In this document: positions 3,310 to 64,000 of the stretch, piece by piece | How positions within the stretch are numbered: the first letter of the stretch is position 1 | Layout of the letters: every line of letters starts with the position of its first letter | Assembly (NCBI GenBank): GCA_034521515.1 | Contig: JAXHMH010000002.1 | Location: 512,444 to 576,443, forward strand | Reading direction: 5' to 3' | DNA length: 64,000 bases | DNA from: Candidatus Saccharimonadota bacterium | Lineage (GTDB): Bacteria > Patescibacteriota > Saccharimonadia > Saccharimonadales > JAXHMH01 | Notes under the pieces: generated by a model | The model's input: only the letters and a program-made list of their open reading frames with translations | Database searches by the model: none | Told to the model about the DNA's origin: nothing | Position numbers and translations under genes: made by a program

Positions 3310-6300
3310 ATGAAGTGGTTGTGGCTACGGAGGGTAGCAGGTCAGGTCGGGGTGGTGGCGCTATTGCTCGGAATAGCGTTTTTTGCGGCCACACAATCAG
3401 CAGCTGACGGCGCCTGGATGGACGACGACTGGCAACACAGAAAGCTCATCACGATCGATGAGACAATGGTCTCTGGTGGGAGTGATTTAGCGAACTTTCC
3501 TATTTTGGTATCAGTTACCGACACGGACCTACGGAGTACCGATTTTGGCGGCGGGGTGGCAAATGTAGATGCCAACGACATTGTATTTACGCTCGATGAC
3601 GGCACAACACTGCTTGCGTATGAACTAGAGAGTTATAACGACCAAACTGGGGATTTGAATGCGTGGGTACGACTGCCATCCCTGTCTGCGACCATCGAGA
3701 CAGAATTGTACATCTACTACGGTAATGAGCTGGCAACGAACCAACAAGATCCGGACAATGTCTGGCCAGCCGATTATGTTATGGTGCAGCACCTTCAAGA
3801 GCAATCAGGATCTGGGAATTTTTTGGCAGATTCAACCAGCGTCGGGAACGACGGTATCCCTTTGGGTACGACACCAGCATTTAACTCCAGTTCCAGGATT
3901 AACGGAGGCTGGGGGTATGGTGGCAATAACCAGCAACGCATCGAAATAGCTGATAATACCAGTTTGCAGTTAGCGGATTCATTTACAGCAGAAGCATGGG
4001 CGCGGTTTACAAGTTGGACGACGCCAGACCATAACCCTGTTCTATGGAAAGGGTCGCAAATCGGGTGGGGAAATAATTATAACTTTAGAATCGCAGTTAG
4101 TAACGGAGCCCCTACTTGGGGGGTGACATGTAGTGCTGAGGGTTGGTTTGCTGGGGGTACGGTATCCTTGAATACCTGGAACCACTACGTTTTGACGTTT
4201 GACGGTACAACCGTCCGAGGTTTCTTAAATGGCACAGAAGTTGGTTCGACAACCGACTGTAGCGGACAATCGCTTAATACTATGGCGGGGAACCCGGTGC
4301 GTAGTGGTTTTGGGTACCGTAACAGTCCAACCCAGGAAACGCACATGGCGGGTGATGTTGATGAGCTACGGATAGCCAACCAAGCCCAGAGCTCAGCATG
4401 GATTCAGACTGGGTATAACAACATGAATGCCCCGGAGACGTACATTGGTTTTGGCCCCGAAGAAGACCGGGCGCCCGCCGTCCCCCAAACCCCCACTCTC
4501 CACGACTCAGGTGGCTCCACCCAACTGGCCTTTAACAACAGCCGTATAGATACTCAAACGCCTACCTTCCGTGTCTCAACTCCTGCAGATGACAACTACA
4601 ACCAAATCCAGTTAGAACTCAACACCGAATCTGACTTCTCTGGCACCAGCTACACCCAAACAACCACCGGTGCCTACATCACCAACGACCAATACAATAT
4701 CCCTGCCAATAGTCTTTCTCCAAGTCTCCCCACTACCGATAATGCAACCTACTACGTCCGTGTCCGAGCCTCCGCCGACGGAGGCACGACCTGGGGCAAC
4801 TGGTCTACAGACAACGCCTGCTGTGACCCATGGAGCTTTACCTACAGCAGTACAGAGGATGAGATGAGTTGGTTCCAGCAAACAGACGTCCAGTTTGACA
4901 CAAGCACGCTAGATGCTGCAGTTACGAATGATGGCGTGCTATTAGCGGCAAGCTCGTTTTCGGCAACTGGCGGGACCATTACTACCATTGGAGATAGCCG
5001 GTATCACGTTTTTACAAGCGATGGCAATTTGACGGTGACTGGGGATTCGTCAACAGGTGAGGTGCTAGTAGTCGGTGGTGGCGGTGGTGGCGCTGGCTCA
5101 GCAGGAAACGCTGGTCGTGGCGGTGGTGGCGCTGGTGGACTAGTCCATGATGAAAACTTTTCACTCAATAGCGGGAGTTATTCAGTTACCGTAGGCACCG
5201 GTGGAGCTGGCGGTGCAGCTTCTGGAGCAGACGGCAGCCAAGGGAGTAACTCATCATTTGATAGTCTTGTCGGAATAGGCGGCGGTGGCGGTGCTGGTTT
5301 GAATACCAACGGGGGAGCTGGTGGGTCTGGTGGTGGTGCCGGAGTGAACAATCTTACTCTGTCAGGTGGCGCTGCGCAGCAGCCAGGTTCAAGCTCCGGT
5401 GGATTTGGTAGTCAGGGCGGCACAGCGGATATATATGCGGTGGGTGCTGGTGGCGGCGGTGGCGGTGGTGCCGGTGCAGCAGGCGGTGCGGGCACGGCAA
5501 GTGCTGGCGGTTCGGGCGGTGCAGGCTTAGAGTTTTCTCAATTTTCTGCGGTTGGTGGATCACCTGCTGGATGGTTTGCTGGTGGTGGCGGCGCATCAGC
5601 TGGTACAACCGGGGGGCCGGGCGGTACTGGCGGTGGTGGTACAGGGTCAACTGATACCTCTTCAGCACAGAGTGGCGTAACAAGTACAGGTGGAGGTGGT
5701 GGCGGTTCGCAGGGTACCGGTGGCGGTGGCGGTGATGGTGGCTCTGGCGTCGTCATTGTTCGTTATGATGTATCGTTTGCTCCGACTGGCAGTGTTACTT
5801 CAGAACCAATCAATTATTCAAGCGTTCCAAGTGCTCTCACGTGGGACGAAATGGTCTGGGAGTCTGATGAGTCTAATGGGTCAATAGAAATGCGGTTGCT
5901 GTACTCAGATTCCGGTACATGTGATGCACTGGTTTCCGACACAGATCTAAGCGGAAACAGCACTGGTTTCACGACTTCGCCAGTCGACATAACGGGGCTT
6001 GATAGCAGTACGTATCAACAGCTTTGCCTCGAGGCTACGCTCACAGAAGACGGTGGATCGCCCGTGCTGCAAAGCTGGGGCATACGCTGGGAGAGGTTCT
6101 TGCCCGCCGTCCCCCAAACCCCCACTCTCCACGACTCAGGTGGCTCCACCCAACTGGCCTTTAACAACAGCCGTATAGATACTCAAACGCCTACCTTCCG
6201 TGTCTCAACTCCTGCAGATGACAACTACAACCAAATCCAGTTAGAACTCAACACCGAATCTGACTTCTCTGGCACCAGCTACACCCAAACAACCACCGGT

Positions 6301-9285
6301 GCCTACATCACCAACGACCAATACAATATCCCTGCCAATAGTCTTTCTCCAAGTCTCCCCACTACCGATAATGCAACCTACTACGTCCGTGTCCGAGCCT
6401 CCGCCGACGGAGGCACGACCTGGGGCAACTGGTCTACAGACAACGCCTGCTGTGACCCATGGAGCTTTACCTACAGCAGTACAGAGGATGAGATGAGTTG
6501 GTATCAAGCAGATGGAGCGCAATTTGCCACAAATGAGCTCACTGATACGGTTGTTGACGGTGATGATGTGGTGTTGGGCGCGGTCGGATCAGGGATTACT
6601 AACCCGACACAATTGACGACATATACGTCGACAACCAATCAGGCATCTGCAACAACCGCGAGTGTCTCGCCGGCCGGCAACGCCTTGATAGTTGTGCTGG
6701 TGGGCACCGGCAGTACTACAACACACACGCATAATGCCGTGACGAGCACCTTTGGCACAGTGGGCGGGTTTACGCAGCGCACCACACAACTCGGTACGAG
6801 CAATACCTTTTACAGGTATTCAATTTATACTGCTGTGACAACGGCAAGTCCAGGCTCTGGTACCATTACCGTTAATTACAGCGCTAATACCCCAAACCAA
6901 GTGCATTATGTATTGCAAGTGGCGGATGGTTTTGACACATCCGACCCGGTAATTCAGACGATTACAGCGACAACCGCAGCAACCACGCTGTCGATGGGCT
7001 TTCCTGCTACTCCGCAAACAAGCTCGCTCGTAATTGGCGGTATTGCCACGAGGCGAGGGACAGATATTGCAGGCACAAGTGGCTATACAACGTTTGCAAA
7101 TATTGATACCGGTGGGGGCACAAATGCCCGCGCGCAATCCCAATATCGTGTCGGTGACGCCGGAATAGGACTAAACTGGACAGGAGACGGGACCCTAGAA
7201 AATATGGTTGCTGGAGCGGTAGAGATACGTGCTGAAACAGCAGATGATGCAACGATTATGTCATCAGAAATCTTTTATGACTACGCACGGAGCCCGCAGA
7301 CTTGGGGTGAGGCGTCGTTTACGTCAAATGAAACAAATGGTGATATCAAATTACGCCTGTATCATAGTTTATCCACAGCCTGCGATACACAGATTCCGAA
7401 TGGAGATCTAGCAGGAAACACCGTTGGCTTTGACGCAACAGATGGATCAATTGACTTATCAGGGCTTAACACGACAACATATGACCAAATTTGTATACAG
7501 GCTACATTGTCAGATGTCGCAGGTACGCCATATTTACAGAGCTGGTCAGTTTCGTGGGAGACAGAACCCAACTTTGCGCCGAATGAACCGTGGGCTTTGG
7601 CTCAAACCAAGACCGATACCTCGCCTTTAGCGGTTGGTGATTGGACGAATGAAAGCTCAGTACGCTTTACAGCCAGTGCGACTGATTTTGATGCAACAGG
7701 TGACTTAGAGCTCTGTGTTGAAGCTCGCCCAATCGGTATCAGCTTCTTGGATGTGCAGAATGACTGTGGTGAACCCGTGGAGTACCAAGCTCCGATTTAC
7801 GAGTGTGACCCAACCGGGAATGCGCTATTTGAAAAGTATGATGGAGTAGCCGGCACAGACATTGCATCACTCTATGCAGCTCCGGCTTTCCCGAATAGTC
7901 CTAGTTCAAATCAAACGATAAGTGGCGGTTCGCTGGAGGGTCCAGTAAATATTGATGATACGTATGGTGGTCGTCTGTCGGCCTTGATTTGCCCACCACA
8001 AGATGGTGATTACACATTTTGGTTGTCGGCCGACGATAATGCTGAGCTGCGCATAAGTACAGATGTGAACCCGGCAAATGTCACAACTATAGCTTCCGTA
8101 CCTGGCTGGTCTGGCGTAGATGAGTGGATAATGTACCCTGAGCAGCAATCTGCACTCGTCACGCTTGAAGCAGACCAGTATTACTACATTGAAGCCAATT
8201 ACAATGAAGGAGCTGGTGGTGACCATGTTCAGATTGGGTGGACATTGCCCGACACGACAGTTGACCGACCGATTTCCGGTACGTACTATTCATTGCCTTC
8301 CGAAGAAGAAGAGCGAACGCTCATTTCTGGCGAGATTCCAACATTAACCGCAGCGCTTAACCTGGCGGATGCGGATAGCTATCATTGGCAAGCTCGGGTG
8401 CGTGACCAAGGCGGCCTCTACTCGAGCTGGGTAAACTTTGGTAGTAACCCAGAAGAGGAGCGTGACTTTGGGATAGACACAACTGCACCAACTAGTGGGA
8501 GTGTATACGATGGCGATGACCTTGGAGAGGACATGATGTTTAATGATGGGTCACTAGATACACTGTCGGCGAACTGGGAAGGCTTTGACTTTGATGTATC
8601 AGGAACGGTTGGCTATGAATATTCAATCGGTACAACGCCGGGTGGTACAGACACAGTTGATTGGACGGATGTCGGTACGGATACCTCGTTTACTATCAGC
8701 AGTCTAGAGCTCCAGACAAACCACGTTTACTACACGAACATTCGGGCTACAGATGTTGCTGGCAATACAGCGGTAGTGAGTTCCGATGGTCAATATGTTT
8801 TACCGACGCTGAGTTTTAGTGTATCGACTTCAAACATTACATTTGAGAATCTTGGTGCCAGTAATGACCGCACAGATTCTGAGGATGTCACGCTTACGAC
8901 CTCCACGAATGCCTACGCTGGCTATACGGTTCGGGCTCGAGCAACAGGGCAACTCAACGCAAATGGGTCGCATGATCTTCCATGGTTTAGCGCAGGGTCG
9001 TATGCTTCTCCGGTTGCCTGGGAGGATAGCAGTACCTGGGGGTACGGCTACACCTCAAGCGATACCAATGTGCAAGGTTCCAATAAGTTTGGCGATGGAA
9101 CATTGTTTGCTCCATTTACCACGCTTGCGCCTGGCGATATTGTGGCTGATAACACCGACAACACAACTGGTGTATCTATACAGGACGAGGAGTTTACAAT
9201 CACGCACCGGGTGGTTGCCCCAGAAGACCAGCCAGCTGGTTTCTACTCCACGACAATTTATTACACAGTGACAGCCGATTACTAA
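3310..9285 (+). CDS. Giant secreted multi-domain surface protein (DUF2341-like, LamG-like, Gly-rich, PA14-like and WxL-like C-terminal modules)
   Basis: Uninterrupted ORF; the track starts at TTG 3274, and ATG 3310 gives MKWLWL plus a TM/signal segment. N-terminal WQHRKLITID...LYIYYGN resembles DUF2341, and WNHYVLTFDG...DVDELRIAN resembles LamG. There is a long GGxGG region. GDYTFWLSADDNAELRIS...YYYIEANYNEGAGGDHVQIGW resembles PA14. The C-terminus is homologous to that of ORF 10393..11412. Confidence 0.85.
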   Translation: MKWLWLRRVAGQVGVVALLLGIAFFAATQSAADGAWMDDDWQHRKLITIDETMVSGGSDLANFPILVSVTDTDLRSTDFGGGVANVDANDIVFTLDDGTTLLAYELESYNDQTGDLNAWVRLPSLSATIETELYIYYGNELATNQQDPDNVWPADYVMVQHLQEQSGSGNFLADSTSVGNDGIPLGTTPAFNSSSRINGGWGYGGNNQQRIEIADNTSLQLADSFTAEAWARFTSWTTPDHNPVLWKGSQIGWGNNYNFRIAVSNGAPTWGVTCSAEGWFAGGTVSLNTWNHYVLTFDGTTVRGFLNGTEVGSTTDCSGQSLNTMAGNPVRSGFGYRNSPTQETHMAGDVDELRIANQAQSSAWIQTGYNNMNAPETYIGFGPEEDRAPAVPQTPTLHDSGGSTQLAFNNSRIDTQTPTFRVSTPADDNYNQIQLELNTESDFSGTSYTQTTTGAYITNDQYNIPANSLSPSLPTTDNATYYVRVRASADGGTTWGNWSTDNACCDPWSFTYSSTEDEMSWFQQTDVQFDTSTLDAAVTNDGVLLAASSFSATGGTITTIGDSRYHVFTSDGNLTVTGDSSTGEVLVVGGGGGGAGSAGNAGRGGGGAGGLVHDENFSLNSGSYSVTVGTGGAGGAASGADGSQGSNSSFDSLVGIGGGGGAGLNTNGGAGGSGGGAGVNNLTLSGGAAQQPGSSSGGFGSQGGTADIYAVGAGGGGGGGAGAAGGAGTASAGGSGGAGLEFSQFSAVGGSPAGWFAGGGGASAGTTGGPGGTGGGGTGSTDTSSAQSGVTSTGGGGGGSQGTGGGGGDGGSGVVIVRYDVSFAPTGSVTSEPINYSSVPSALTWDEMVWESDESNGSIEMRLLYSDSGTCDALVSDTDLSGNSTGFTTSPVDITGLDSSTYQQLCLEATLTEDGGSPVLQSWGIRWERFLPAVPQTPTLHDSGGSTQLAFNNSRIDTQTPTFRVSTPADDNYNQIQLELNTESDFSGTSYTQTTTGAYITNDQYNIPANSLSPSLPTTDNATYYVRVRASADGGTTWGNWSTDNACCDPWSFTYSSTEDEMSWYQADGAQFATNELTDTVVDGDDVVLGAVGSGITNPTQLTTYTSTTNQASATTASVSPAGNALIVVLVGTGSTTTHTHNAVTSTFGTVGGFTQRTTQLGTSNTFYRYSIYTAVTTASPGSGTITVNYSANTPNQVHYVLQVADGFDTSDPVIQTITATTAATTLSMGFPATPQTSSLVIGGIATRRGTDIAGTSGYTTFANIDTGGGTNARAQSQYRVGDAGIGLNWTGDGTLENMVAGAVEIRAETADDATIMSSEIFYDYARSPQTWGEASFTSNETNGDIKLRLYHSLSTACDTQIPNGDLAGNTVGFDATDGSIDLSGLNTTTYDQICIQATLSDVAGTPYLQSWSVSWETEPNFAPNEPWALAQTKTDTSPLAVGDWTNESSVRFTASATDFDATGDLELCVEARPIGISFLDVQNDCGEPVEYQAPIYECDPTGNALFEKYDGVAGTDIASLYAAPAFPNSPSSNQTISGGSLEGPVNIDDTYGGRLSALICPPQDGDYTFWLSADDNAELRISTDVNPANVTTIASVPGWSGVDEWIMYPEQQSALVTLEADQYYYIEANYNEGAGGDHVQIGWTLPDTTVDRPISGTYYSLPSEEEERTLISGEIPTLTAALNLADADSYHWQARVRDQGGLYSSWVNFGSNPEEERDFGIDTTAPTSGSVYDGDDLGEDMMFNDGSLDTLSANWEGFDFDVSGTVGYEYSIGTTPGGTDTVDWTDVGTDTSFTISSLELQTNHVYYTNIRATDVAGNTAVVSSDGQYVLPTLSFSVSTSNITFENLGASNDRTDSEDVTLTTSTNAYAGYTVRARATGQLNANGSHDLPWFSAGSYASPVAWEDSSTWGYGYTSSDTNVQGSNKFGDGTLFAPFTTLAPGDIVADNTDNTTGVSIQDEEFTITHRVVAPEDQPAGFYSTTIYYTVTADY
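4473..4873 (+). repeat. Copy 1 of a 401-bp perfect direct repeat inside the giant CDS
   Basis: Base-for-base identical to 6102..6502 by my reading. Offset is 1629 bp (543 codons, in frame). Encodes APAVPQTPTLHDSGG...STEDEMSW. Confidence 0.9.
6102..6502 (+). repeat. Copy 2 of the 401-bp perfect direct repeat inside the giant CDS
   Basis: Identical to 4473..4873. The domains flanking each copy are homologous but diverged. Confidence 0.9.
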
Positions 9286-14205: not shown

Positions 14206-14282
14206 CGGGGTGTGGCGCAGTTGGCTAGCGCGCGCGGTTTGGGACCGTGAGGTCGAAGGTTCGAGTCCTTTCACCCCGACCA
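14206..14282 (+). tRNA. tRNA-Pro (anticodon TGG), CCA encoded
   Basis: Manual cloverleaf: acceptor CGGGGTG/CACCCCG, anticodon loop TTTGGGA, T arm GAAGG-TTCGAGT-CCTTT, 77 nt. Confidence 0.9.
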
Positions 14283-14384
14283 ATAAAAAAAGGTTACCTT
14301 GTGTAGCCTTTTTTTATTGGTTAGAGTCAACGGCTCGGTTCTTCGACACAGATTTGCACCAGCAAATATGCAAGTCGAAGGTTC
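14268..14384 (+). repeat. 117-bp direct repeat, copy 1 (tRNA-Pro 3' end, bidirectional terminator and hairpin)
   Basis: Matches 14633..14749 with one mismatch. Contains the 14-nt inverted repeat ccaataaaaaaagg...cctttttttattgg. Confidence 0.85.
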
Positions 14385-14476
14385 GGTGTAGCGCAGCGTA
14401 GGCGAGAAAGCGCTTTAGCATTTTCTCGGCAAGCAAGCGGAAAAGGACGTAGTCCGCTGTCCTTTCACCCCGACCA
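14374..14476 (+). pseudogene. tRNA-Pro T-arm/acceptor fragment split by a 74-nt insert
   Basis: gtcgaaggttcg, then an insert (14386..14459), then tcctttcaccccgacca. The break falls right after TTCG of the T loop. Confidence 0.7.
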
Positions 14477-14564
14477 TGAAAAAGGAGTCTCTTCATTGAG
14501 ACTCTTTTTTCATGCTTGGCTGAAAAGATTTGGTTCTTCGACTCGACAGCTTCAGCTGGCGATA

Positions 14565-14647
14565 GTCGAATGGTTCGGTCGTTAGTCACAGACCCCAGCG
14601 TTAGCGGGCGTCTGGATTAACGTGCGTTGTCTCTTTCACCCCGACCA
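14565..14647 (+). pseudogene. Second, diverged tRNA-Pro T-arm/acceptor fragment split by a 54-nt insert
   Basis: gtcgaatggttcg, then an insert (14578..14631), then tctttcaccccgacca. Confidence 0.65.
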
Positions 14648-14749
14648 ATAAAAAAAGGTTACCTTGTGTAGCCTTTTTTTATTGGTTAGAGTCAACGGCT
14701 CGGTTCTTCGACGCAGATTTGCACCAGCAAATATGCAAGTCGAAGGTTC
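14633..14749 (+). repeat. 117-bp direct repeat, copy 2
   Basis: See 14268..14384. Offset is 365 bp. Confidence 0.85.
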
Positions 14750-19015: not shown

Positions 19016-19390
19016 GCGGGTGTCGTATAATGGCTAATATACCTGCCTTCCAAGCAGGCGATGCGAGTTCGCCCCGGTCATACGACGGGGCGCCCTATCG
19101 GATGATAGGGCGATTCTCAAGAAGCAACAATTAACAATCTACGGGTGTCGTATAATGGCTAATATACCTGCCTTCCAAGCAGGCGATGCGAGTTCGCCCC
19201 GGTCATACGACGGGGCGCCCTATCGGATGATAGGGCGATTCTCAAGAAGCAACAATTAACAATCTACGGGTGTCGTATAATGGCTAATATACCTGCCTTC
19301 CAAGCAGGCGATGCGAGTTCGCCCCGGTCATACGACGGGGCGCCCTATCGGATGATAGGGCGATTCTCAAGAAGCAACAATTAACAATCT
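19016..19390 (+). repeat. Three tandem 125-bp units, each a truncated tRNA-Gly copy with a 41-nt T-loop insert
   Basis: Units start at 19016, 19141 and 19266 and are identical except for the first base. Each holds tRNA-Gly nt 1-56, a two-hairpin insert, attctc, and a 22-nt spacer. Confidence 0.9.
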
Positions 19391-19465
19391 GCGGGTGTCG
19401 TATAATGGCTAATATACCTGCCTTCCAAGCAGGCGATGCGAGTTCGATTCTCGCCACCCGCACCA
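19391..19465 (+). tRNA. tRNA-Gly (anticodon TCC), CCA encoded
   Basis: Acceptor GCGGGTG/CACCCGC, anticodon loop CTTCCAA, T arm GCGAG-TTCGATT-CTCGC, 75 nt. Confidence 0.9.
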
Positions 19466-35087: not shown

Positions 35088-35164
35088 TGGAGGGCCATCT
35101 GGGACTCGAACCCAGGACACCCTGCTTAAGAGGCAGGTGCTCTAACCAGCTGAGCTAATGGCCC
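35088..35164 (-). tRNA. tRNA-Lys (anticodon CTT), CCA encoded
   Basis: The reverse complement folds as acceptor GGGCCAT/ATGGCCC, anticodon loop CTCTTAA, T arm CTGGG-TTCGAGT-CCCAG. Confidence 0.9.
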
Positions 35165-35245
35165 GGTAGTAGACTTTCATTTACTCCACACTAGTGCGGA
35201 GTAGGCTTTTGCCTGGCAAAAGCTAATGAAAGCTCACTACCGGGC
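35165..35245. mobile_element. 81-nt MITE-like palindromic element abutting the 5' end of tRNA-Lys
   Basis: Roughly 19-bp terminal inverted repeats (ggtagtagactttcatt / aatgaaagctcactacc) enclose two inner hairpins. Flanked by the direct repeat tggccc (35159..35164 and 35246..35251). Confidence 0.5.
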
Positions 35246-35360: not shown

Positions 35361-36233
35361 ATGAAACTTCTAGACGGTAAAGAACTCGCCGGTTTTATAA
35401 AAGAACGTCAGGCGAAACAAGTAAGGGAACTAAGGCAATCGCACGTGGTTGAGCCTAAGCTAGCCATTGTTCAGTGCAAGGATGATCCGGTCATCAACAC
35501 CTATGTGCGGCTTAAAAAGCAGTATGGTACCGATATTCAAGTAGAGGTTGAGGTACACAATGTAGCCCAAGATAAAGTTCAAGATGTGCTACAGAAGCTT
35601 AACGAAGACATCTCGATTCACGGCATTATTGTCCAGCTGCCGTTAGCAGACACAGATCAAACAGAAGAGGTGGTGAACCTGGTTGCCTCAGAAAAAGACG
35701 TAGATGCGCTTGGAAACCCTCTTGCAGCGTGGCTACCAGGAACCACGCACTCTGGGCGGCAGGGCGAGGCGGTGCGTGGTTCCTGGTTTACGCCTGCGAC
35801 GCCAATGGCGATTATGTGGTTATTGGCAGGTTATAACATTGACCTCCGTGGCAAAAAAGTGTTGCTAGTTGGCCGTGGCCGCTTGGTAGGTGCGCCTCTA
35901 GAGCGAATCTTAAAAGACTCTGACATAGACGTTTCGTCTGCAGACAGAGAAACAAAAAAGCTTAACGTGTTAACTATTAATGCAGATGTCATTATTACCG
36001 CGACTGGTAGCCCGGCAATTTTATACCCGGACATGATAAAACAAGGAGCAGTGGTGGTAGATGCAGGCGTGGCCGGTGAAGACGGAAAAACCGTTGGTGA
36101 TTTACACCCGAGCGTGTATGAACGCGATGACTTAACCGTAACGCCAGCCAAAGGCGGCGTTGGCCCGCTGACTGTCTGTGCCTTATTTGACAATGTAATC
36201 CGCGCCGCTCGACAATCAGCTGAGAGTAAATAA
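35361..36233 (+). CDS. folD: Bifunctional methylenetetrahydrofolate dehydrogenase/cyclohydrolase
   Basis: KLLDGKELA, HGIIVQLPL, DVDA...TPATP and GGVGPLTV. Carries an extra loop encoded by a palindrome. Confidence 0.9.
   Translation: MKLLDGKELAGFIKERQAKQVRELRQSHVVEPKLAIVQCKDDPVINTYVRLKKQYGTDIQVEVEVHNVAQDKVQDVLQKLNEDISIHGIIVQLPLADTDQTEEVVNLVASEKDVDALGNPLAAWLPGTTHSGRQGEAVRGSWFTPATPMAIMWLLAGYNIDLRGKKVLLVGRGRLVGAPLERILKDSDIDVSSADRETKKLNVLTINADVIITATGSPAILYPDMIKQGAVVVDAGVAGEDGKTVGDLHPSVYERDDLTVTPAKGGVGPLTVCALFDNVIRAARQSAESK
35736..35786 (+). repeat. 51-nt perfect-stem palindrome in frame within folD
   Basis: ccaggaaccacgcac, a 21-nt loop, then gtgcgtggttcctgg. It starts on a codon boundary and encodes PGTTHSGRQGEAVRGSW. 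Confidence 0.85.
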
Positions 36234-45756: not shown

Positions 45757-46575
45757 ATCCTAGTTTATGGGTGTGAGGAACTAATCCCGTAACCGGACAT
45801 TTAAAGAAGGTGGAGATAGAGCGGCAACAGAGGTAGTTTATACGTCTCAGGGCTGCTTTTTTACACTTTTTGAGGAGTTCGGGAGTCCATAACCTATGGG
45901 TTCATTTACAAGTCAGATCATTACAGTCTATAATCCTGCAATTCATGCCGTAACAGACTGCTTCTGAACAAAGTTCAGAACACCTCTGTTACTCTTTGGA
46001 CGCTACGGCGTTGCTGGACTGTGGTGCGTCCTCATCGTACGTTTGTACGATTCCGGTCGCTCCTCGTCCGCGCCTTGTATCGCCCTAAAGCATGAAATGC
46101 AGGAAACTCCGGGATGTCAATATGTTGACATCTGGAGTGTTCCGTAAGGAGAGGCGCACTATCATGAGTGCGGGCCGTCTAATACTAGCCGCCAGGGGTC
46201 GTACCCTGTTGCTAGCAGTTGGCGGTCCGTGCTCATTGGTGTTGAAGCTAGTAGGTTGAGTAACTTCGGTTGCTCCCAGTAAGCTCCGCCTTACCTGACA
46301 CGGAACAGTGACTACAGTAAACCCTAAAAACAACACAGATTAAGACCTTTTTGCTTTTGAGCACAGCACTTTGTTTGTCGACCTCGACAATCAGGGTGCT
46401 GTGTTCAAACCCCAAGAGGGGGTATGAGCAACAAGTCGATGGCGACATCGACCTTGCTTGCTCATACGAGCGTCAAAGGAAGATTTAGCTGTCGACTTGT
46501 TGTGGGCAATCCCACAGCCTGGTGAGGCCATAGGCCAATCTAGCTCCTACCCCCTCATATCGAGGAAGGAGAGTC
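45757..46575 (+). ncRNA. Candidate long structured leader or unclassified ncRNA (about 0.8 kb, ORF-free)
   Basis: No plus-strand ORF of 60 aa or more. Many stems of 6-18 bp, for example ctccgggatgtcaa/ttgacatctggag, gtatgagcaa..ttgctcatac and gagcacagcac/gtgctgtgttc. Long-range complement gttccgt/acggaac. Confidence 0.3.
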
Positions 46576-49318: not shown

Positions 49319-50836
49319 ATGAAATCATTATTTTCACGTCTGCCGATGAAGCTTATTGTGAGCGTGCTAGTAATAGTTGCGTTTGCTGGTTTCTTTACGG
49401 CAGGTAGCAGTGCTCTAATTGGTGGTGATCGCCAAGTAAAGCAATATGAAGGTTCAGGTACGCCTGGATTTGATCACGTACAGTTTAACTCGTTTACAGA
49501 TGTCCCAAACATCGGTGACGAGAGAGACTTTTTCACCGGCAAGGTTAACGATGCTCCAGACGGTTTTTATGACCCGATGAACGGTGTCCGAGGCGGTGAT
49601 GAATTGCTTGTGCGCGTTTACGTTCACAACAATGCTGATAAAAAACACAATGAGAGTGGTCAAGGCGTAGCCAAGAACACTCGTGTTCGCGTTGAACTTC
49701 CAGAAGGGCTTTCAGAAAACCAAACTGCACGTGCGTTTGTCAGTGCAGATAACGCTCAGCCGGAAGTCATTGAAGACACATTGAGTCTTACTGGTGAATA
49801 TCCAGTAGAACTCGATTATGTCGAAGGTTCTGCAAATGTTAAGTCTAACTTTCAGGATAGAGCTCTTAGCGATGATATCGTTGACAGCGGTGTACTAATT
49901 GGTGATGACAATGTTAATGGTGACATGAAGGGGTGTTTCGAATACGTTGCACTCGTAACCTTCAAAGTAAAAGTTGTCTCTCCGAGCTATGAGCTTGACA
50001 AGTATGTTCGTATTCATGACAAAGAAGATTTTGGTGAAATTGTTCATGTTGCCCCTGGCGATAAAGTAGATTTCGGTATGGCGTTCAAGAACGTTGGTAC
50101 CACAGACTTGCGTGATGTTATTGTTGGTGATCGACTGCCAGATGGCTTGTCATATGTTCCTGACTCTACGCACGTGATTTCGGGTCACACCGATAATAAA
50201 TGGGTCAAGACGTCTGGCGATAATATCGTAAGCGGCGGACTCACGATTGGTGGCTATTTACCACAAGGTTCAGCGTTTGTCCGGTTTACTGCAGAGGTAG
50301 ATGAAGATGAGGTGGAATGTGGCACAAGTGATCTTGTAAACATTGGCTATGCTAAGCCAAAGGATCACGGAACTATCGAAGACAAAGCGACTGTTCGTGT
50401 TACGAAGCAATGTGAGGAAGAGCCAGAAAAGCCAGTTTACAAATGTGAGATGATTACAGTGAAGAAGCTGAGCGACCGTAAGGTTCGTGTCGATGTTGAT
50501 GCTCCTGCTTCTAATGGTGCAACCGTTAAGCAGTACCGCTACGATTTCGGTGACGGCTCTGATGAGCTCGTAACCACTGACGATTCACGCGAGTACACTT
50601 ACGAAGGTAATGGTCCATATGACATACGTGTTACGGTAGACTTCACTGTTGACGGCGAGACTAAGTCTCACACCAGCGAAGCATGTACCGATCGCGTTTC
50701 ATTTGAGAAGCCTGAAAAACCCGATCAACCTGAGGAATTGCCAAGCACTGGTGCGGGGAGCGTAGTTGGTTTGTTTACCGCTACAACTCTAGCCGGTACA
50801 GCAGTTCACCGATTTGTTCTGTCACGTCGTGACTAA
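49319..50836 (+). CDS. LPXTG-anchored surface protein with a PKD-like domain
   Basis: Strong SD aaggaggtg and a signal peptide. YRYDFGDGSDE...GPYDIRVTVDF is PKD-like. C-terminal LPSTG, then a hydrophobic stretch, then RRD. Confidence 0.8.
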   Translation: MKSLFSRLPMKLIVSVLVIVAFAGFFTAGSSALIGGDRQVKQYEGSGTPGFDHVQFNSFTDVPNIGDERDFFTGKVNDAPDGFYDPMNGVRGGDELLVRVYVHNNADKKHNESGQGVAKNTRVRVELPEGLSENQTARAFVSADNAQPEVIEDTLSLTGEYPVELDYVEGSANVKSNFQDRALSDDIVDSGVLIGDDNVNGDMKGCFEYVALVTFKVKVVSPSYELDKYVRIHDKEDFGEIVHVAPGDKVDFGMAFKNVGTTDLRDVIVGDRLPDGLSYVPDSTHVISGHTDNKWVKTSGDNIVSGGLTIGGYLPQGSAFVRFTAEVDEDEVECGTSDLVNIGYAKPKDHGTIEDKATVRVTKQCEEEPEKPVYKCEMITVKKLSDRKVRVDVDAPASNGATVKQYRYDFGDGSDELVTTDDSREYTYEGNGPYDIRVTVDFTVDGETKSHTSEACTDRVSFEKPEKPDQPEELPSTGAGSVVGLFTATTLAGTAVHRFVLSRRD

Positions 50837-51270
50837 AACTAAACCATGTGCCGCGTGAGCGGCCTGCTTTCTGGGCTAGTCCGGAAACACCGCCCTCACG
50901 CTCTTGGCGCAGTACTTTGTCAGAAGCTCCAGTACTCGAGCACCGTATGTATATACGGTTTACTCCGTGCTTCGCTTCTTCCGTGTACTGCATCCAAGTA
51001 CAAGCTTTAGTTTCCAGACTTATTTGCTCAGGTAGGATGCGCAGTGCATTCCTCCTGCCTGCAACGTAGCAAATCCTGGGGTGAGGTAGTCTGCAATCAG
51101 ATTATGGAGCCTCAAGATTTGCTATCGTTGTGGATAAACACTAGCGATATTGTCAAAAATATGCTAGTCTTGCATTGAAGATTAGGAGCACGACTGACCG
51201 CTCAAAACGAACTCTCAATAAAGCACCCCGGCCTAAAAACCGGGGTATTTTATTTCCACCCCACCCCTTT

Positions 51271-51307
51271 TGCAAGGTTAGACCTTGCAACAAGGTCTAA
51301 CCTTGCA
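51271..51307. repeat. REP-like hairpin flanking the transposase gene (left)
   Basis: tgcaaggttagaccttg caa caaggtctaaccttgca: 17-bp stem, 3-nt loop. Confidence 0.8.
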
Positions 51308-51337
51308 GTTTCCGGGTTGTAGTTTCGTTATTTAGGA

Positions 51338-51967
51338 TTAAGTATCTGCCAGGATTCCTTTTAGGAGCTTCAAATCCTTACGTTGTGCCTTGTACTCACT
51401 TACGAATTTCCTATAGTCTTTGGTGCTGTTGTCGTGAAGTTCCATGATCTTGTCCGGCCTAAGCCATTCTGCCGTACGTGTCTTCATATAGTACGGAAAA
51501 CTGGAATAGTCATAGGTTTCGTAGTCGACATTGATGTCTTGAGGATTCAGGTGTATGTACCGGCTAATATGTAATAAATAGTCATCCTTATCTATAAGAC
51601 TTGCTTTGTAGGTGCCCTGGAATAAGCTGCCAACTCGCTTGTGGCGCTTATTGAAATACATGCTATAAGCTGTCATTAGTCGGTGCATGAGTTCTGGCAG
51701 GCCTTTATCTTCCTGATTGTAGACAAGGAGATGGAAGTGATTTGGCATCAGGCAGAAAGCCAATAACTCCACTTTGTTTAACAGATGTGCAAAATCTCTG
51801 CCATACTTATCTTGAAGTGGTTCGTTAGACAGGTGGCGCTTAAAAAGGTGTAAAAAATAAAAGTAGTCATCTGAGTCTAGAAAAACGTCAGATTTATTTA
51901 CACCACGATTATAAACGTGGTAGTAGTTATCGCTAGCTAACTGTTTTACTACATGACGACTCGGCAT
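51338..51967 (-). CDS. IS200/RAYT-type Y1 (HUH) transposase
   Basis: YYHVYNRGVNK, the HUH motif PNHFHLLV and SRYIHLNP. ATG 51967 preferred; the track start at 52021 runs through the REP hairpin. Confidence 0.8.
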   Translation of the reverse strand: MPSRHVVKQLASDNYYHVYNRGVNKSDVFLDSDDYFYFLHLFKRHLSNEPLQDKYGRDFAHLLNKVELLAFCLMPNHFHLLVYNQEDKGLPELMHRLMTAYSMYFNKRHKRVGSLFQGTYKASLIDKDDYLLHISRYIHLNPQDINVDYETYDYSSFPYYMKTRTAEWLRPDKIMELHDNSTKDYRKFVSEYKAQRKDLKLLKGILADT

Positions 51968-51971
51968 AATA

Positions 51972-52006
51972 ACAAGGTCTAACCTTGCAACAAGGTTAGA
52001 CCTTGT
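51972..52006. repeat. REP-like hairpin flanking the transposase gene (right)
   Basis: acaaggtctaaccttg caa caaggttagaccttgt: the same arms as the left copy, in swapped order. Confidence 0.8.
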
Positions 52007-52065
52007 TGTGGACGGTGTCAAGGTGTTGTGATATATTGACCCGAGTAAATAAGCTTTATTGACGA

Positions 52066-52140
52066 GGCCTCATCGTCTAACGGTTAGGACATCAGGTTTT
52101 CATCCTGGAAATCGGGGTTCGATTCCCCGTGAGGTCACCA
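52066..52140 (+). tRNA. tRNA-Glu (anticodon TTC), CCA encoded
   Basis: Acceptor GGCCTCA/TGAGGTC, anticodon loop TTTTCAT, T arm CGGGG-TTCGATT-CCCCG, 75 nt. Confidence 0.9.
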
Positions 52141-52851: not shown

Positions 52852-53107
52852 TTTAGATTATTAAGCCTATGGTATTCTCTGTAAGTTTTTGCTTTATCTC
52901 TGGAGCATAAGCGGTTAATATAATAAGTATGACAAGTAAATCTTTTGCACTTGGATGTAGAGTGGTATTTCTCCGTGAGAAACGGAGCGAGGCGTATATG
53001 TCATACGGTGACGTGAGTATCGCAGCGGAAAATGTCGCTCTACGCCAAGAACCTTTACAGCGCAGCTGGCTGTGCCAGCTGGCAGGGAAAGGTGATGCAA
53101 AGATCTG

Positions 53108-54544
53108 ATGAAAACAACCTTTAAAGTGCCAAACGTTCCGCTGGCAAAATTCAAGCGGACAAAGATTATAGCTACGGTTGGTCCAGCCACCAACAGTTAC
53201 GAGGCTATTTATGAGCTTATTACAGCTGGCGCTAATGGTATTAGGCTTAACTTTAGTCACGGCACGCACGAAGAACGCGAAAAGCAGATCAAGTGGATAC
53301 GCAAAGCTGCCGCGAAATACGGCAAGCCAATAGCCATTATCCAAGATTTACAGGGCCCCAAAGTGCGTCTTGGCGACTTTGAAGGTATTGTGAATGTCGC
53401 CGAGAGCCAGAGCTTTAGCTTTAAATACAAGGCAGACTACGACGAGTCCGGTGTGCTGCCAACTCAGTACGACTTAAGCAAAAAGGTTAAGCGAGGCGAA
53501 CGGCTTTATTTATATGACGGCAAGATCCGCATGACCATAACCAGCGTGCGTGATGGTGTCGTGCATGCTCGTGCTGAAAACGACGGCATTTTGATCAAAA
53601 GAAAAGGCATCAACCTGCCAGACACTGATTTTGGCGGCGATATTCTTACCAAGAAAGACCGGCAAGACATTGTTTTTGGATCGACAAACGACATAGATTA
53701 TGTGGCGCTGAGCTTTGTGCAACATGCAGGTGATATCAAAAAACTCCGTACTTTACTGCGCGGGCTGGGTAGCTCGGCGCGTATTATAGCCAAGATTGAA
53801 ACCAAAGCTGCAGTAGATAATCTGGAGCCAATAGTCAAAGAAGCTGATGCGGTCATGGTGGCGCGCGGCGACTTAGCAATCGAAACACTGGCTGAGTCGG
53901 TTCCAATTGTGCAACGCCAAATCATTGGACTGGGCGCGCAATATTCCACACCCACTATAGTCGCGACGCAAATGCTAGCGACCATGACTGAATTACCTGA
54001 ACCAACCAGGGCAGAAGTATCGGATGTAGCGACAGCGGTTATTGTATCGACAGATGCAGTTATGTTGAGTGACGAAACCGCCAATGGCCAGTACCCGATA
54101 CAGTCAGTCAAAGTCATGAAGCGAGTAATTCTTCATACCCAAGAGAATATGCCGCTCAAAGTAACTTTTCCAGAACATGAAGAGAATCGTTCGCAAACAG
54201 CTGCGATCTCAAAAGCTATTATTAAACTTGCTAATACGCTAGAAGCCAAAGCGATTGTGGCAGAAACAAAATCTGGCGCAACAGCACTGCAAATTAGCGC
54301 TCGACGTCCGGATCAACCAATTATTGCCGCCACACCTGACATTAGGGTGGCACAGCAGCTGGCAGTTGTGTATGGGATTAAAAGTTATGTACGGCCGGAT
54401 GATCCACGACAGGCCACCAAGCTAACAAACTGGCTGCACCAAAACAAAGTATTGAGCAAGGGTGATATGGTTATTACGGTTTCTGGCAAGCACCCTGGTG
54501 TGGTCGGGTCGACGGACACCATTAAAGTACGTGTTTTAGAATAA
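53108..54544 (+). CDS. pyk: Pyruvate kinase
   Basis: RTKIIATVGPA, NFSHG, MVARGDLAIE and TQMLATM. Confidence 0.95.
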   Translation: MKTTFKVPNVPLAKFKRTKIIATVGPATNSYEAIYELITAGANGIRLNFSHGTHEEREKQIKWIRKAAAKYGKPIAIIQDLQGPKVRLGDFEGIVNVAESQSFSFKYKADYDESGVLPTQYDLSKKVKRGERLYLYDGKIRMTITSVRDGVVHARAENDGILIKRKGINLPDTDFGGDILTKKDRQDIVFGSTNDIDYVALSFVQHAGDIKKLRTLLRGLGSSARIIAKIETKAAVDNLEPIVKEADAVMVARGDLAIETLAESVPIVQRQIIGLGAQYSTPTIVATQMLATMTELPEPTRAEVSDVATAVIVSTDAVMLSDETANGQYPIQSVKVMKRVILHTQENMPLKVTFPEHEENRSQTAAISKAIIKLANTLEAKAIVAETKSGATALQISARRPDQPIIAATPDIRVAQQLAVVYGIKSYVRPDDPRQATKLTNWLHQNKVLSKGDMVITVSGKHPGVVGSTDTIKVRVLE

Positions 54545-54545
54545 T

Positions 54546-54716
54546 CTACGGGTTTCGCAGCAAATCAGTGACTACTGGCCGAGCCAGTAGCTCCCCGATT
54601 TTCTTGGCATCCAGCGCGCGTTTTGCACGAAATACTCATTCGCCGTAGCATAAACTACGACTCACTCCGTTTTCCTGCAAGAACGCACACTGGCTACTCA
54701 AGTGCGAAACCCGTAG
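54546..54716. repeat. 171-nt element bounded by 14-bp perfect inverted repeats in the pyk-pgk spacer
   Basis: ctacgggtttcgca (54546..54559) pairs with tgcgaaacccgtag (54703..54716), with inner hairpins. The right arm can alternatively pair with cgggttt (54724..54730) to form a terminator. Confidence 0.7.
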
Positions 54717-57581: not shown

Positions 57582-59912
57582 GTGATGTCGGAGGATGTTT
57601 TACGCGGGTTAAACGACGAGCAGCGGCGGGCGGTCGAGACGACCGAGGGGCCGTTGCTTATTTTAGCGGGTGCTGGTTCTGGCAAAACCAAGACTTTAAC
57701 GCACCGCATTGCCTATATAATTGCCCAACATAAGGCCACACCTTATAACATATTGGCGGTTACGTTTACCAACAAAGCTGCCCGTGAAATGCGCGAGAGG
57801 GTTTGGAACTTGATGCAAAGCAGCAACTCTTGGGGCATCCAGGCGGATGGAGTGCAAGGCGCTAGCGATGCGCAGACTGAGCCGTACAGAAAGTACGGTG
57901 AAGGAGCACAGCAGGTAGCAACGCAACAATCCGCCGCCAACAACACCAGTGCAGATGGCTCTGCTAGCTGGCAGGGTGGCGTGATGGATGTGCCAAGAGG
58001 GTTTATGCCTTTTATGGGCACTTTCCACGGTATCTGCGTCAGGTTGCTGCGGCAAGATGGCGAGCACGGCGGAGTGCCAAAAAACTTCGTTATTTTTGAC
58101 GAGTCTGACCGATTAACAGCCATAAAGCAGGCTTGCAAACAACTGATGATTGATGAAAAAGCCTTTCCACCTCGAACCTTATCCGGCTTGATTAGTAGCG
58201 CCAAAAACGAACTAATATCTGCCGCTGAATATTCATCTACAGGCAGCGGCCCAATGCACAAAACAGCTGCCCAGGTTTTCCCGATCTATGAACGCATACT
58301 CAAACAAGCTGGTGCACTAGATTTTGACGATCTTATCGCCCAGACGGTAAAGCTGCTCAAAAACAACGAGCAAATTCGCCATAAGTGGCAGCAGCAATTT
58401 CGTTATGTAATGATTGATGAGTACCAAGACACCAACTCGGCGCAGTACAAGCTAATTAAGCTACTGACAAACGAACAAACAAACATTGCGGTTGTAGGCG
58501 ATGATTGGCAATCGATTTATTCATGGAGAGGGGCTGATTTTCGCAATATCCTCAATTTCGAAAATGACTATCCAGACACCGCGGTGATTAAGCTGGAACA
58601 AAATTATCGCAGTACTAAGGCGATTTTGGACGCAGCACACGCAGTTATATCCAAAAATAAACAGCGTTCAAGTAAAGAATTGTGGACTGATGCAGGCGCC
58701 GGGCAGCCAGTGCAGGTCATTCAAGTTCATAATGAGCGAGCCGAAGGTGAGGCGATAATCCGGCGGGTTCAAAATGCGGTTGACGCACGCTTTAGACAAT
58801 ATAAAGACTTTGCAGTGCTGTACCGCACAAATGCCCAAAGCCGCGCGATTGAAGAAATGTTCGTGCGTTACGGTATCCCGTATAGGATTATTGGCGGGCA
58901 ACGGTTCTATGACCGTAAAGAAATCAAGGATATATTGGCGTACCTGCGTTTGATATATCAGCCAGAAGATCGTGTCAGTTTTGCGCGTATTGTTAACGTG
59001 CCAACTCGAGGCATAGGCACTAAATCGTTAGAAAAATTTTATAACTGGCAGATTGAGCGCAACCTTACTTTGCAACAGGCGCTTGATACAGTCGGGGAGT
59101 ACGATGGTATCACGGGTAAAGCCCGTAAAGGCTTGGTTGAGCTTGGCGACCTACTTACAAAAATGCGTGAACTTGTGAACGATGTGCCCTTAACCGGGCT
59201 GCTTGATTCGTTGATTCGCCGGATTGACTACATGGCCTATCTTGACGATAAGACACTACAAGGTGAATCACGGCAAGAAAACGTCAAGGAACTGCTGAGC
59301 GTTGCCGAAGAGTATCAGGAGCTAGGACTGGACGGATTTTTGGAAGAAGTGTCTCTGGTGAGCGGTCTTGATTCAGCAGATTTTGACAACAATTCCGTGA
59401 CACTCATGACCATGCATGCCGCAAAAGGTCTGGAGTTTCCGGTGGTGTTTTTGGCTGGCCTGGAGGAAACTATTTTTCCGCACTCCCGCGCACTGTATGA
59501 TCAACACGAAATGGAAGAGGAACGTCGGTTGTGTTACGTAGGTATGACCCGCGCTAAAGAAGAGTTGATACTTAGCTACGCCTCATCGCGCATGTTATAC
59601 GGTGGTGTGCAGCATAATCCGCCGTCTCGATTTTTGAGCGAGATAGATGGCAAACTGCAAACCGATACCTCAGGTAAATGGACGCCCACATCACATTCGG
59701 CCGAGCCGTTTGTAGCCCCTGGTGCGCCTAAACCAACCGGTGATAGCGAACCACGATATGTACCTGATTTAAATGAAGGTGATAGTGTCAGGCATCAGGT
59801 ATTTGGTGTTGGCACAGTTATGGAAGTAGACGGAGATAATGTTGCAATCTATTTCAAAGGCAAAGGCGCCAAAAAACTCAACAGCAGTTTCGCCCCACTC
59901 GAAAAACTGTAA
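57582..59912 (+). CDS. pcrA: ATP-dependent DNA helicase PcrA/UvrD with a lineage-specific insertion
   Basis: AGAGSGKT, TFTNKAAREM, DEYQDTN, VGDDWQSIY, QNYRST and MTMHAAKGLEF. About 55 extra residues lie between REMRERV and GTFHG. Confidence 0.95.
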   Translation: MMSEDVLRGLNDEQRRAVETTEGPLLILAGAGSGKTKTLTHRIAYIIAQHKATPYNILAVTFTNKAAREMRERVWNLMQSSNSWGIQADGVQGASDAQTEPYRKYGEGAQQVATQQSAANNTSADGSASWQGGVMDVPRGFMPFMGTFHGICVRLLRQDGEHGGVPKNFVIFDESDRLTAIKQACKQLMIDEKAFPPRTLSGLISSAKNELISAAEYSSTGSGPMHKTAAQVFPIYERILKQAGALDFDDLIAQTVKLLKNNEQIRHKWQQQFRYVMIDEYQDTNSAQYKLIKLLTNEQTNIAVVGDDWQSIYSWRGADFRNILNFENDYPDTAVIKLEQNYRSTKAILDAAHAVISKNKQRSSKELWTDAGAGQPVQVIQVHNERAEGEAIIRRVQNAVDARFRQYKDFAVLYRTNAQSRAIEEMFVRYGIPYRIIGGQRFYDRKEIKDILAYLRLIYQPEDRVSFARIVNVPTRGIGTKSLEKFYNWQIERNLTLQQALDTVGEYDGITGKARKGLVELGDLLTKMRELVNDVPLTGLLDSLIRRIDYMAYLDDKTLQGESRQENVKELLSVAEEYQELGLDGFLEEVSLVSGLDSADFDNNSVTLMTMHAAKGLEFPVVFLAGLEETIFPHSRALYDQHEMEEERRLCYVGMTRAKEELILSYASSRMLYGGVQHNPPSRFLSEIDGKLQTDTSGKWTPTSHSAEPFVAPGAPKPTGDSEPRYVPDLNEGDSVRHQVFGVGTVMEVDGDNVAIYFKGKGAKKLNSSFAPLEKL

Positions 59913-63724: not shown

Positions 63725-63754
63725 TTGACATAAGCATAAGTTTGGTGCTATAAT
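63725..63754 (+). promoter_or_regulatory. Promoter (TTGACA, 18-nt spacer, TGcTATAAT)
   Basis: Consensus -35 and an extended -10, reading toward the end of the window. Confidence 0.6.
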
Positions 63755-63759
63755 ACCCT

Positions 63760-64000
63760 TTACCGTCACCAGACGGGAAGGCTCTAGAAAGCCATTAAAA
63801 ACGCACTTTCATTCATCTACCGAAAATTCACAAGGGTGCATAATGCACGGAAGAAGTGAGCAACGGACTGAGCCGTATAAACAATACGGTGAAGGAGTAG
63901 CGGAACTTCTGACACAGCAGTATGCGGCCAGCTGTTAATGAATTATGGATTCATTCCATTATGCTTAACAGCGGTTGTGTGTTTTCGGGGGCTGAATTTA
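63760..64000 (+). ncRNA. Candidate structured 5' leader, truncated by the window end
   Basis: No ORF. Several hairpins, including the motif actgagccgtataaacaatacggtgaaggag, which is shared with the pcrA insertion. Confidence 0.25.

Follow-up and report, generated by a model that had tools for sequence, protein, structure and literature searches.

The folD gene in a 64-kb stretch of DNA from a Candidatus Saccharimonadota bacterium (hereafter the window, meaning the whole 64,000 nt analysed) carries a perfect palindrome. This is very probably what internal deletion has left of a structured, non-autonomous repeat element that is dispersed through Saccharibacteria genomes. When intact, the element measures 171 nt, exactly 57 codons, and folds on one strand into a three-way junction. 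Six full copies and the folD remnant, seven copies in total, lie within the window. Relatives carry homologous copies in folD, others are inserted in frame into unrelated housekeeping genes, and still others are intergenic. The element is apparently undescribed: a search of open-access and bioRxiv literature on palindromic or repeat elements in Saccharibacteria, Patescibacteria and the CPR returned no relevant paper.

The folD palindrome

The host gene is intact (this and the other features are listed in Table 1). Pfam domains PF00763 and PF02882 are recorded on the identical protein P0001 (precomputed matches), solved FolD structures match the window protein end to end over residues 1–285 (E 1.7e-45), and the residues that are invariant in an alignment of 28 sequences (e.g. 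Y48, K52, Q92, D113) are all kept. An initial annotation, made from the DNA letters without database searches, had described an in-frame palindromic element of 51 nt (17 codons) with a 15-bp stem. The palindrome is real, in frame and GC-rich: its arms can be read directly, the GC fraction around it is 0.70–0.72 versus 0.49 for the whole folD gene, and the encoded peptide PGTTHSGRQGEAVRGSW lies between KDVDALG and PATPMA. Its dimensions and status required revision. A repeat search added one pair to the 15-bp arms, giving a perfect 16-bp stem whose pairing reaches the first base of a Phe codon outside the element; the inserted material amounts to 60 nt (20 codons); and the palindrome, taken at first for the whole element, is only the closing stem, with a scrap of one arm, of a larger one.

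The RNA fold of positions 35716–35806 has a free energy of −50.9 kcal/mol (z = −4.56), which none of 200 shuffled sequences equalled. By our own estimate, the expected number of perfect 16-bp inverted repeats with arms up to 120 nt apart in 64 kb is 64000 x 120 x 4^-16, or ~0.002 per window, so the stem is not a product of chance. Plain sequence search found the 15-mer arm nowhere in the window beyond the pair itself; because the stem sequence varies from copy to copy, a search of this kind misses the element family. One inverted repeat (4173–4316), an arm of which resembles the folD stem, was considered and rejected as a family member, as it gave no match to the covariance model introduced below and had a fold z of −2.9.

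Table 1. Features of the window discussed in the text (E values and bit scores from the covariance model; folds as predicted free energies)
Feature	Position	Strand	Evidence
folD CDS, bifunctional methylene-THF dehydrogenase/cyclohydrolase, intact, with remnant	35361..36233	+	ORF, ATG at 35361, stop at 36233
Remnant of the 171-nt element, 60 nt, 20 codons, AWLPGTTHSGRQGEAVRGSW	35727..35786	+	Alignment with full and partly deleted folD copies; 26 versus 6 residues
Left arm of the palindrome, ccaggaaccacgcac	35736-35750	+	Sequence read
Loop of the palindrome, tctgggcggcagggcgaggcg, 21 nt	35751-35771	+	Sequence read
Right arm of the palindrome, gtgcgtggttcctgg	35772-35786	+	Sequence read
Left arm of the 16-bp stem: P1 5' strand, exact complement of the right arm, putatively rewritten	35735..35750	+	Repeat search, alignment with other folD copies
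Loop, homologous to the P3 apical loop and P3 3' strand (…CTCTG..GGCAGG…GCG)	35751..35771	+	Alignment with other folD copies
Right arm of the 16-bp stem: conserved P1 3' strand GTGCGTGGnTCnTGG, encoding VRGSW; last base is the first base of the Phe codon	35772..35787	+	Repeat search, alignments
Full copy, intergenic, downstream of a histidine-kinase gene	45934..46104	-	130.2 bits, E 1.7e-25; fold -81.5 kcal/mol, z -8.4; stops in all sense frames
Full copy, intergenic, 1 nt after the stop of ORF 49319-50836, downstream of the Y1 transposase ORF	50837..51012	-	97.4 bits, E 1.2e-18
IS200-like Y1 transposase gene with flanking hairpins	51338-52018		
Full copy, intergenic, last base is the A of the pyruvate kinase (pyk) ATG	52936..53108	+	101.1 bits, E 2e-19
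Full copy, intergenic between pyk and pgk, antisense to both, ~1 nt past the pyk stop	54546..54716	-	82 bits, E 2e-15; fold -96.2 kcal/mol, z -10
Full copy, in frame in pcrA/uvrD (ORF 57582-59912), in the same element frame as in folD	57828..57998	+	cmsearch 142.4 bits, E 5e-28; fold -78.1 kcal/mol
Full copy, intergenic, after a marR-like gene	63820..63988	+	112.3 bits, E 9e-22

The insert site among FolD relatives

The window FolD has 26 residues between KDVDALx and PATPMA, versus six in insert-free Saccharibacteria FolDs. Its loop is 10 residues longer than in the solved FolD 3p2o, close to the excess of ~11 residues over the Bacillus subtilis protein that had been estimated at the outset. 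Comparison with orthologues revealed a polymorphic site. In 96 of the 118 closest scorable FolD homologues the site is free of insert (six residues from KDVDxLx to PATPMA); the other 22 carry an insert at exactly the same site, adding 18–64 residues. Among species-representative folD loci, 78 of 80 are without it, as is the closest relative of the window FolD (P0005, 79% identity). A neighbour-joining tree of the 118 FolDs, calculated with the insert removed, placed the insert-bearing proteins in scattered positions; its topology was star-like and uninformative for counting gains and losses.

The inserts form a graded series. In insert-bearing FolDs the segment between the two motifs measures 24–26, 49–51, 63–65 or 69–70 residues, the additions amounting to 18–20, 43–45, 57 or 58–64 residues, and the commonest insert is exactly 57 residues, that is, 171 nt. 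The insert ends are conserved (..(D/N)PxAPWP and ..RQAxAVRGSWF). At the DNA level, all long inserts fold into a three-way junction (−69 to −102 kcal/mol) with a closing stem (P1), a long arm (P2) and a hairpin arm (P3). Shorter forms grade away from this structure: two (P0038, P0104) are without the tip of the long arm, a third (L091) consists of P1 and P3 only, and the window folD, together with L004 and L005, keeps little beyond the closing stem.

An AlphaFold2 (AF2) model of the window FolD has a pLDDT of 85.7 overall, dropping to 44–56 at residues ~119–144, where the insert lies and no secondary structure is predicted. The surface-loop placement suggested initially is borne out by this low-confidence, unstructured segment. 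The insert is most reasonably taken to be translated as a disordered loop on the protein surface.

A three-way junction conserved at the nucleotide level

We aligned nine copies taken from folD, cysS, udg and one intergenic site (MAFFT) and derived a consensus structure with RNAalifold. The consensus contains 60 base pairs, 45 of them with compensatory changes, arranged as the closing stem P1 (~15 bp), the arm P2 with purine-rich internal loops and a CCGUAC/GUACGG tip, and the arm P3. A separate count over the nine copies gave 93.3% pairing with both sides changed in 46 of the 60 pairs, values that were reached in 0/500 shuffles; in controls in which the 3' partners were slid by 1–3 columns, only 5–14 pairs had changed on both sides. 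Conservation is highest in the purine-rich internal loops and at the tip of P2. By contrast with the perfect hairpin in the window folD, the closing stem of full copies is imperfect, with G-U pairs, a bulge and mismatches, and its outer ~10 bp have a different sequence in each copy but are always paired. Pairing stays at 87–95% in diverged copies, the intergenic ones included.

One sense frame of the element is free of stop codons and encodes a peptide of the form ..QGxGEQRTEPYxKYGEG..SAGRQAxAVRGSW. This frame is open in all eight genic copies that align at 171 nt, and nearly all intergenic copies have stops in the sense frame used in folD. The folD insert of P0012 (locus L089) separates the constraint on the peptide from that on the structure. 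Its hairpin loop is one base longer, and a one-base deletion 56 nt downstream restores the frame, so that this compensated +1/−1 frameshift alters the peptide over ~18 codons and leaves the fold unchanged; the nucleotide structure, not the peptide, is therefore what is conserved, and the open reading frame is nonetheless preserved. An ordinary loop had been expected to show the reverse, a conserved peptide with no conserved nucleotide palindrome; the covariation and this frameshift are the opposite of that pattern.

Searches of Rfam (release 15) returned no match on the element at E up to 10 (five folD loci) or at E up to 5 (window 45–64 kb), riboswitch families such as THF and ZTP included. 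A riboswitch, a known ribozyme and a known small RNA are ruled out on this basis. A likeness of GAGCCGUAC..GUACGGUGA to domain 5 of group II introns, noticed by eye, likewise gained no support from the Rfam search. Translational bypass, splicing and an intein were also ruled out, as the length of genic copies is divisible by three, their frame is open and the single +1 shift is repaired by −1.

Dispersal within the window and beyond

A covariance model built from the nine copies was run over the 64-kb window and identified the six full copies with E values from 2e-15 to 5e-28. Folded alone, each of them yields the three-way junction, with free energies of −67 to −96 kcal/mol and z scores from −5 to −10, and the sense strand is more stable than the antisense strand in every window copy (e.g. 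−96.2 versus −68.8 kcal/mol). Related copies in other coding sequences, which the initial annotation had suggested searching for, are present both here and in other genomes. The genic copy in the window lies in a gene identified by Pfam as a UvrD-helicase (E 1e-89). In a set of 120 PcrA homologues, 92 have an uninserted site of 18 residues and one carries the element; about ten have 4–9 extra residues, which may be remnants. The remaining five full copies are intergenic, and several of them adjoin start or stop codons exactly. A scan for promoters and terminators around the intergenic copies gave counts not above shuffled expectation; a single perfect promoter consensus was noted upstream of the copy at 63820.

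The window copies are old in appearance. Sequence identity among the 12 window–window pairs listed is 35–58%, so nothing points to recent transposition. Neither target-site duplications nor other direct repeats flank the seven copies, and the copies share no conserved terminal sequences.

Outside the window, a peptide profile of the folD insert matched non-FolD proteins. The element lies in frame inside a family-4 uracil-DNA glycosylase gene (udg; L094), between yqeY and adk (L096/L097), among hypothetical genes (L095) and, in a metagenome scan, in frame in cysS beside the GFPGWH motif (L090). The covariance model detected further copies, unused in its construction, in L003, L061, L094 and L012. 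An exhaustive profile search of 1.84 billion cluster representatives recovered 197 protein clusters carrying the element peptide at E up to 1e-3. Many of these are probably gene calls over stand-alone copies (ORFs of 57–66 residues), and at least 20 are internal insertions in unrelated proteins. Hosts include Dus, TsaD, malic enzyme, NrdR, PrmC (three clusters), a Y-family polymerase, an RluA-type pseudouridine synthase, MsrA, DHFR, a DNA methylase, MetK, Ogt, a GTPase, PilM, TruB and YjbR, among others. In MsrA, DHFR and malic enzyme, the insert splits the Pfam domain into two matched stretches.

Two alternatives can be weighed against this distribution. An ordinary lineage-specific loop that is palindromic by accident, or an assembly artefact, could be imagined from the partly conserved residues at the end of the insert in insert-bearing FolDs and from the origin of the window in a metagenome-assembled genome. 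Against the first stand the small chance expectation of the stem and the pairing that was kept while the peptide was frame-shifted; against the second stand homologous inserts in independent assemblies (JGI, ENA, Logan and NCBI), the copy at 63820–63988, which has an identical sequence in the independent Logan assembly L098, and the intact folD reading frame. We consider either version extremely improbable. Scarcely better placed is a folD-specific regulator, acting as a pause site at the FolD domain boundary or as a sensor of a folate-linked metabolite. The folD gene is a riboswitch target in other bacteria, the hairpin is very stable, and it sits at the junction of the two FolD domains. However, with copies between genes and in more than 20 unrelated genes, a role specific to folD becomes difficult to sustain, and this dispersal largely refutes the idea. 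Most folD genes of Saccharibacteria are also without the element, the riboswitch families of Rfam gave no match, and the stem is nearly fully paired, with no conserved core resembling a ligand pocket.

Origin of the perfect hairpin in folD

At positions 35736–35786 of the window, the covariance model gave 19.9 bits (E 0.017) with a match spanning model positions 1–171. On its own this match is weak; the homology of the remnant to the element rests on the series of forms at the folD site. In the alignment, GCG TGG CTA CCA of the window is placed on CCA TGG CCn CCG of the family (outer 5' strand of P1), and CTCTGGGCGGCAGGGCGAGGCGGTGCGTGGTTCCTGG aligns on the family sequence GCTCTGCTnGnnGGCAGGCnnGnGGGGTGCGTGGCTCATGG, which comprises the P3 loop, the P3 3' strand and the P1 3' strand. 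The ~111 nt that lie between these aligned ends in the full element are absent in the window, where GGAACCACGCAC stands in their place. Together with the preceding ACCA, GGAACCACGCAC is the exact reverse complement of the right arm.

These observations are best explained by the following course of events. A full element would have landed in phase in the folD loop between the DVD and PATP motifs and been translated; because one sense frame has no stops, an in-phase copy in a tolerant surface loop would simply be read through as protein. Loss of ~111 nt (P2 and the 5' half of P3) would later have shortened it from 171 to 60 nt, a change that left the reading frame intact, in line with the demands of selection on folD. 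The right arm would have been copied into the left by an intra-strand template switch at replication, which either accompanied the deletion or followed it. Template switching is a documented maker and maintainer of perfect hairpins (PMC8794818), and we infer that it produced the perfect stem here. The end product would be a perfect 16-bp hairpin with no function specific to folD.

Persistence of the fold

The observation that sits least easily with a simple selfish relic is that old, diverged copies are still 87–95% paired. This suggests that the fold is selected locus by locus or that a mutational process keeps the palindromes in being. More fully, the data point to one of three causes: locus-level selection on one folded strand, selection on source elements whose mobile form is a folded single strand, or palindrome-maintaining mutation. 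The element probably is or was mobile and selfish, and it may move as a single-stranded nucleic acid recognised via its fold.

The first of these causes corresponds to a functional, strand-specific structured RNA or single-stranded DNA module that is selected locus by locus, for example as a protein platform or as a signal for mRNA processing or stability. This would give the element the same identity as in the relic reading and differ in the reason why the fold persists. Several observations fit it. High pairing is retained in copies that are only 35–60% identical, and the copies at the folD site show covariation as well. There are 74 G-U pairs against 22 A-C mismatches overall, and 33 against 14 in copies outside model building. 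The better folding of the sense strand throughout the window, the conservation concentrated in the purine-rich loops and the P2 tip, and the intergenic copies that abut start or stop codons likewise speak for such a module. Other observations oppose it. Copies point either way with respect to the adjoining genes, and one lies antisense within the pyk–pgk pair; most folD and pcrA orthologues do without the element; and the element withstands internal deletions of graded extent. Within an ORF, a structure of −70 to −100 kcal/mol is ill-suited to a processing signal, and no Rfam family matched in the searches of the five folD loci and of window 45–64 kb. The G-U excess could arise in part from the G-rich sense strand and from the preference of the model, and selection on source elements alone can yield covariation among paralogues. 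On balance, we find locus-by-locus function unlikely.

The preferred reading remains the deleted relic of a dispersed repeat. Beyond it, we tentatively raise the possibility that the 171-nt junction is more than selfish DNA and represents a new class of strand-specific structured nucleic-acid module that abounds in Saccharibacteria, either a mobile element that propagates, by means of some enzyme, as a folded single strand of RNA or DNA, or a functional RNA or protein-binding platform selected at each locus, coding regions included.

Comparison with known repeat elements

The closest behavioural parallel is provided by the Rickettsia palindromic elements (RPE-1 to RPE-10; summarised in PMC10969869), for which an analogue in a very different lineage had been conjectured from the palindrome alone; the dispersal and the in-frame genic copies support that conjecture. 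Like the element described here, RPEs are short, non-autonomous palindromic repeats present in many copies in small, reduced genomes; a large share of the copies lies in frame in unrelated housekeeping genes, where they encode a conserved peptide at tolerant sites, and they have no recognisable terminal inverted repeats, target duplications or known transposase. In contrast, RPEs reside in Alphaproteobacteria and form simple hairpins of 100–150 bp, whereas the present element belongs to Saccharibacteria (Patescibacteria) and forms a 171-nt three-way junction with very strong covariation and a sense-strand bias. The comparison supports an element that appears to work like an RPE, to which it is likened by behaviour and not by membership.

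Other families share fewer traits. ERIC/IRU sequences and similar repeats of enterobacteria are imperfect palindromes of ~130–170 nt that occur intergenically in either orientation and keep their fold in old copies, but they are essentially extragenic, rarely in frame, and differ in sequence, fold and host range. MITEs resemble the element in being small, non-autonomous, multi-copy and able to form long hairpins; their defining features are conserved terminal inverted repeats matching a parent IS and target duplications, both of which the element is without, and we found no parent IS for it. GC-rich hairpin inserts in the coding sequence of an AT-richer genome are also known from the GC clusters of yeast mitochondria, the byp elements and gene 60 of phage T4. 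Those inserts are bypassed by the ribosome or disrupt the frame, whereas the genic copies here have a length that is a multiple of three and an open frame, which makes plain translation the economical reading.

Systems of the IS200/IS605, PATE and REP/BIME-RAYT type move one strand via hairpins, with no terminal repeats or duplications, a mode of mobility that would fit the strand bias and the missing duplications of the element, traits that are compatible with this family and not specific to it; REP sequences differ in being 20–40 nt long and extragenic. The hairpins that flank the IS200-like Y1 transposase gene of the window (CAAGGTCTAACCTTG, at 51271–51307 and 51971–52007) are unlike P1, P2 and P3 and score just 9–11 bits in the covariance model. 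No conserved cleavage or target motif was seen beside the window copies, and no Y1 genes were listed near the copies in the other loci examined. A link between the element and this transposase was therefore rejected for want of hairpin similarity and of co-occurrence elsewhere, and any connection to IS200/IS605 elements in general is speculation.

Implications

In-frame selfish repeats have mostly been seen as a curiosity of Rickettsia. The element adds an independent and structurally richer family in the ultra-small, episymbiotic Saccharibacteria, which suggests that reduced genomes repeatedly tolerate, or fail to purge, elements that write themselves into proteins. There are consequences for annotation, as many of the 'hypothetical proteins' of 57–66 residues in CPR bins are probably calls over repeats and many length variants of housekeeping enzymes are element insertions. 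In phylogenetics, the insert contributes homoplasy-prone indels, and for the discovery of structured RNA it offers a strongly covarying motif that had no match in the Rfam searches made here. At a single site, the forms range from full through half to stem-only, a natural case study of how a palindrome is trimmed and 'perfected' while the frame is kept. The value of the folD palindrome lies in what it exposes, a widespread element by which many housekeeping proteins of Saccharibacteria gain 57 residues.

Possible remnants of the element in coding genes

The site in pcrA (gene 57582–59912) at which the dispersed 171-nt element is inserted comprises 18 residues in 92 of the 120 homologues compared (P0276–P0395), while the PcrA protein P0276 carries an element version of 50 residues there. 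About ten of the 120 have 4–9 additional residues at this position, ending in VPR, APR or PPR. These short extras may be leftovers of deleted element copies, comparable to the remnant in folD (35361–36233). Between the DVDA and PATP motifs, FolD proteins of insert-free Saccharibacteria have only 8 residues versus 18 in the solved FolD structure 3p2o, so this lineage has an unusually short native loop. Element copies at three loci from other assemblies contain extra material, either within the repeat or 5' of its closing stem (see table).

Other repeats and mobile-element candidates

Further hairpins and repeats lie elsewhere in the window, several of them near tRNA genes. The arrangement at 14206–14695 resembles a duplication of a tRNA 3' end together with a terminator, and may mark where an integrated element has its attachment sites. 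The stretch 51271–52018, with its transposase ORF and flanking hairpins, could be an IS200-family element that is still intact, or else a RAYT-like gene. The inverted repeat in the surface-protein ORF has an arm (TACCTGGAACCAC) similar to the folD stem, the perfect 16-bp hairpin of the folD remnant. Its fold z-score is just −2.9 and the covariance model of the element gave no match on it, so the repeat is probably unrelated to the element.

Features in the window and extra material in element copies at loci L001, L090 and L095 (positions without a locus name refer to the window)
Feature	Position	Strand	Description
Surface-protein ORF	3274–9285		2003 residues
Inverted repeat	4173–4316		17-nt arms 110 nt apart; within surface-protein ORF
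tRNA-Pro	14206–14282
Repeated hairpins	14267–14333, 14635–14695		common CACCCCGACCAATAAAAAAAGGTTAC; after tRNA-Pro
Third hairpin	14470–14519		tRNA-Pro region
Palindromic unit CGCCCTATCGGATGATAGGGCG	19091–19362		22 nt, three copies, 125-nt spacing; directly upstream of tRNA-Gly
tRNA-Gly	19391–19465
tRNA-Lys(ctt)	35088–35164	−
Imperfect 21-bp hairpin	35161–35245		spacer preceding folD; overlaps tRNA-Lys(ctt) 5' end
Two perfect 17-bp hairpins	51271–51307, 51971–52007		related sequences, one each side of Y1 ORF
Y1 (HUH) transposase ORF, IS200-like	51338–52018	−	Pfam PF01797, E 1.4e-11
tRNA-Glu	52066–52140		adjoins Y1 ORF/hairpins
Perfect sigma-70 consensus	63725–63754	+	TTGACA, 18 nt, TG-TATAAT; 65 nt upstream of element copy 63820–63988 (+)
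L095 copy (hypothetical-gene region)	L095:9993–10231		split by ~90 nt containing direct repeat, CTAGACGAGATTCTTTTCGATGAAGTTC twice
cysS copy	L090:1504–1554		50-nt extension 5' of closing stem
folD copy of L001	L001:3364–3385		21-nt extension 5' of closing stem

Possible expression and coding potential of element copies

The sigma-70 consensus could drive transcription of the downstream copy as a leader or small RNA. Two intergenic copies, 52936–53108 in the window and L096:1414–1593 in the yqeY–adk region of another assembly, are each covered by an ORF of ~59 codons. In both cases the stop of this ORF and the start of the gene that follows (pyk and adk, respectively) overlap. Predicted ORFs of this type probably explain many of the 57–66-residue "hypothetical proteins" recovered by the insert-peptide profile search.
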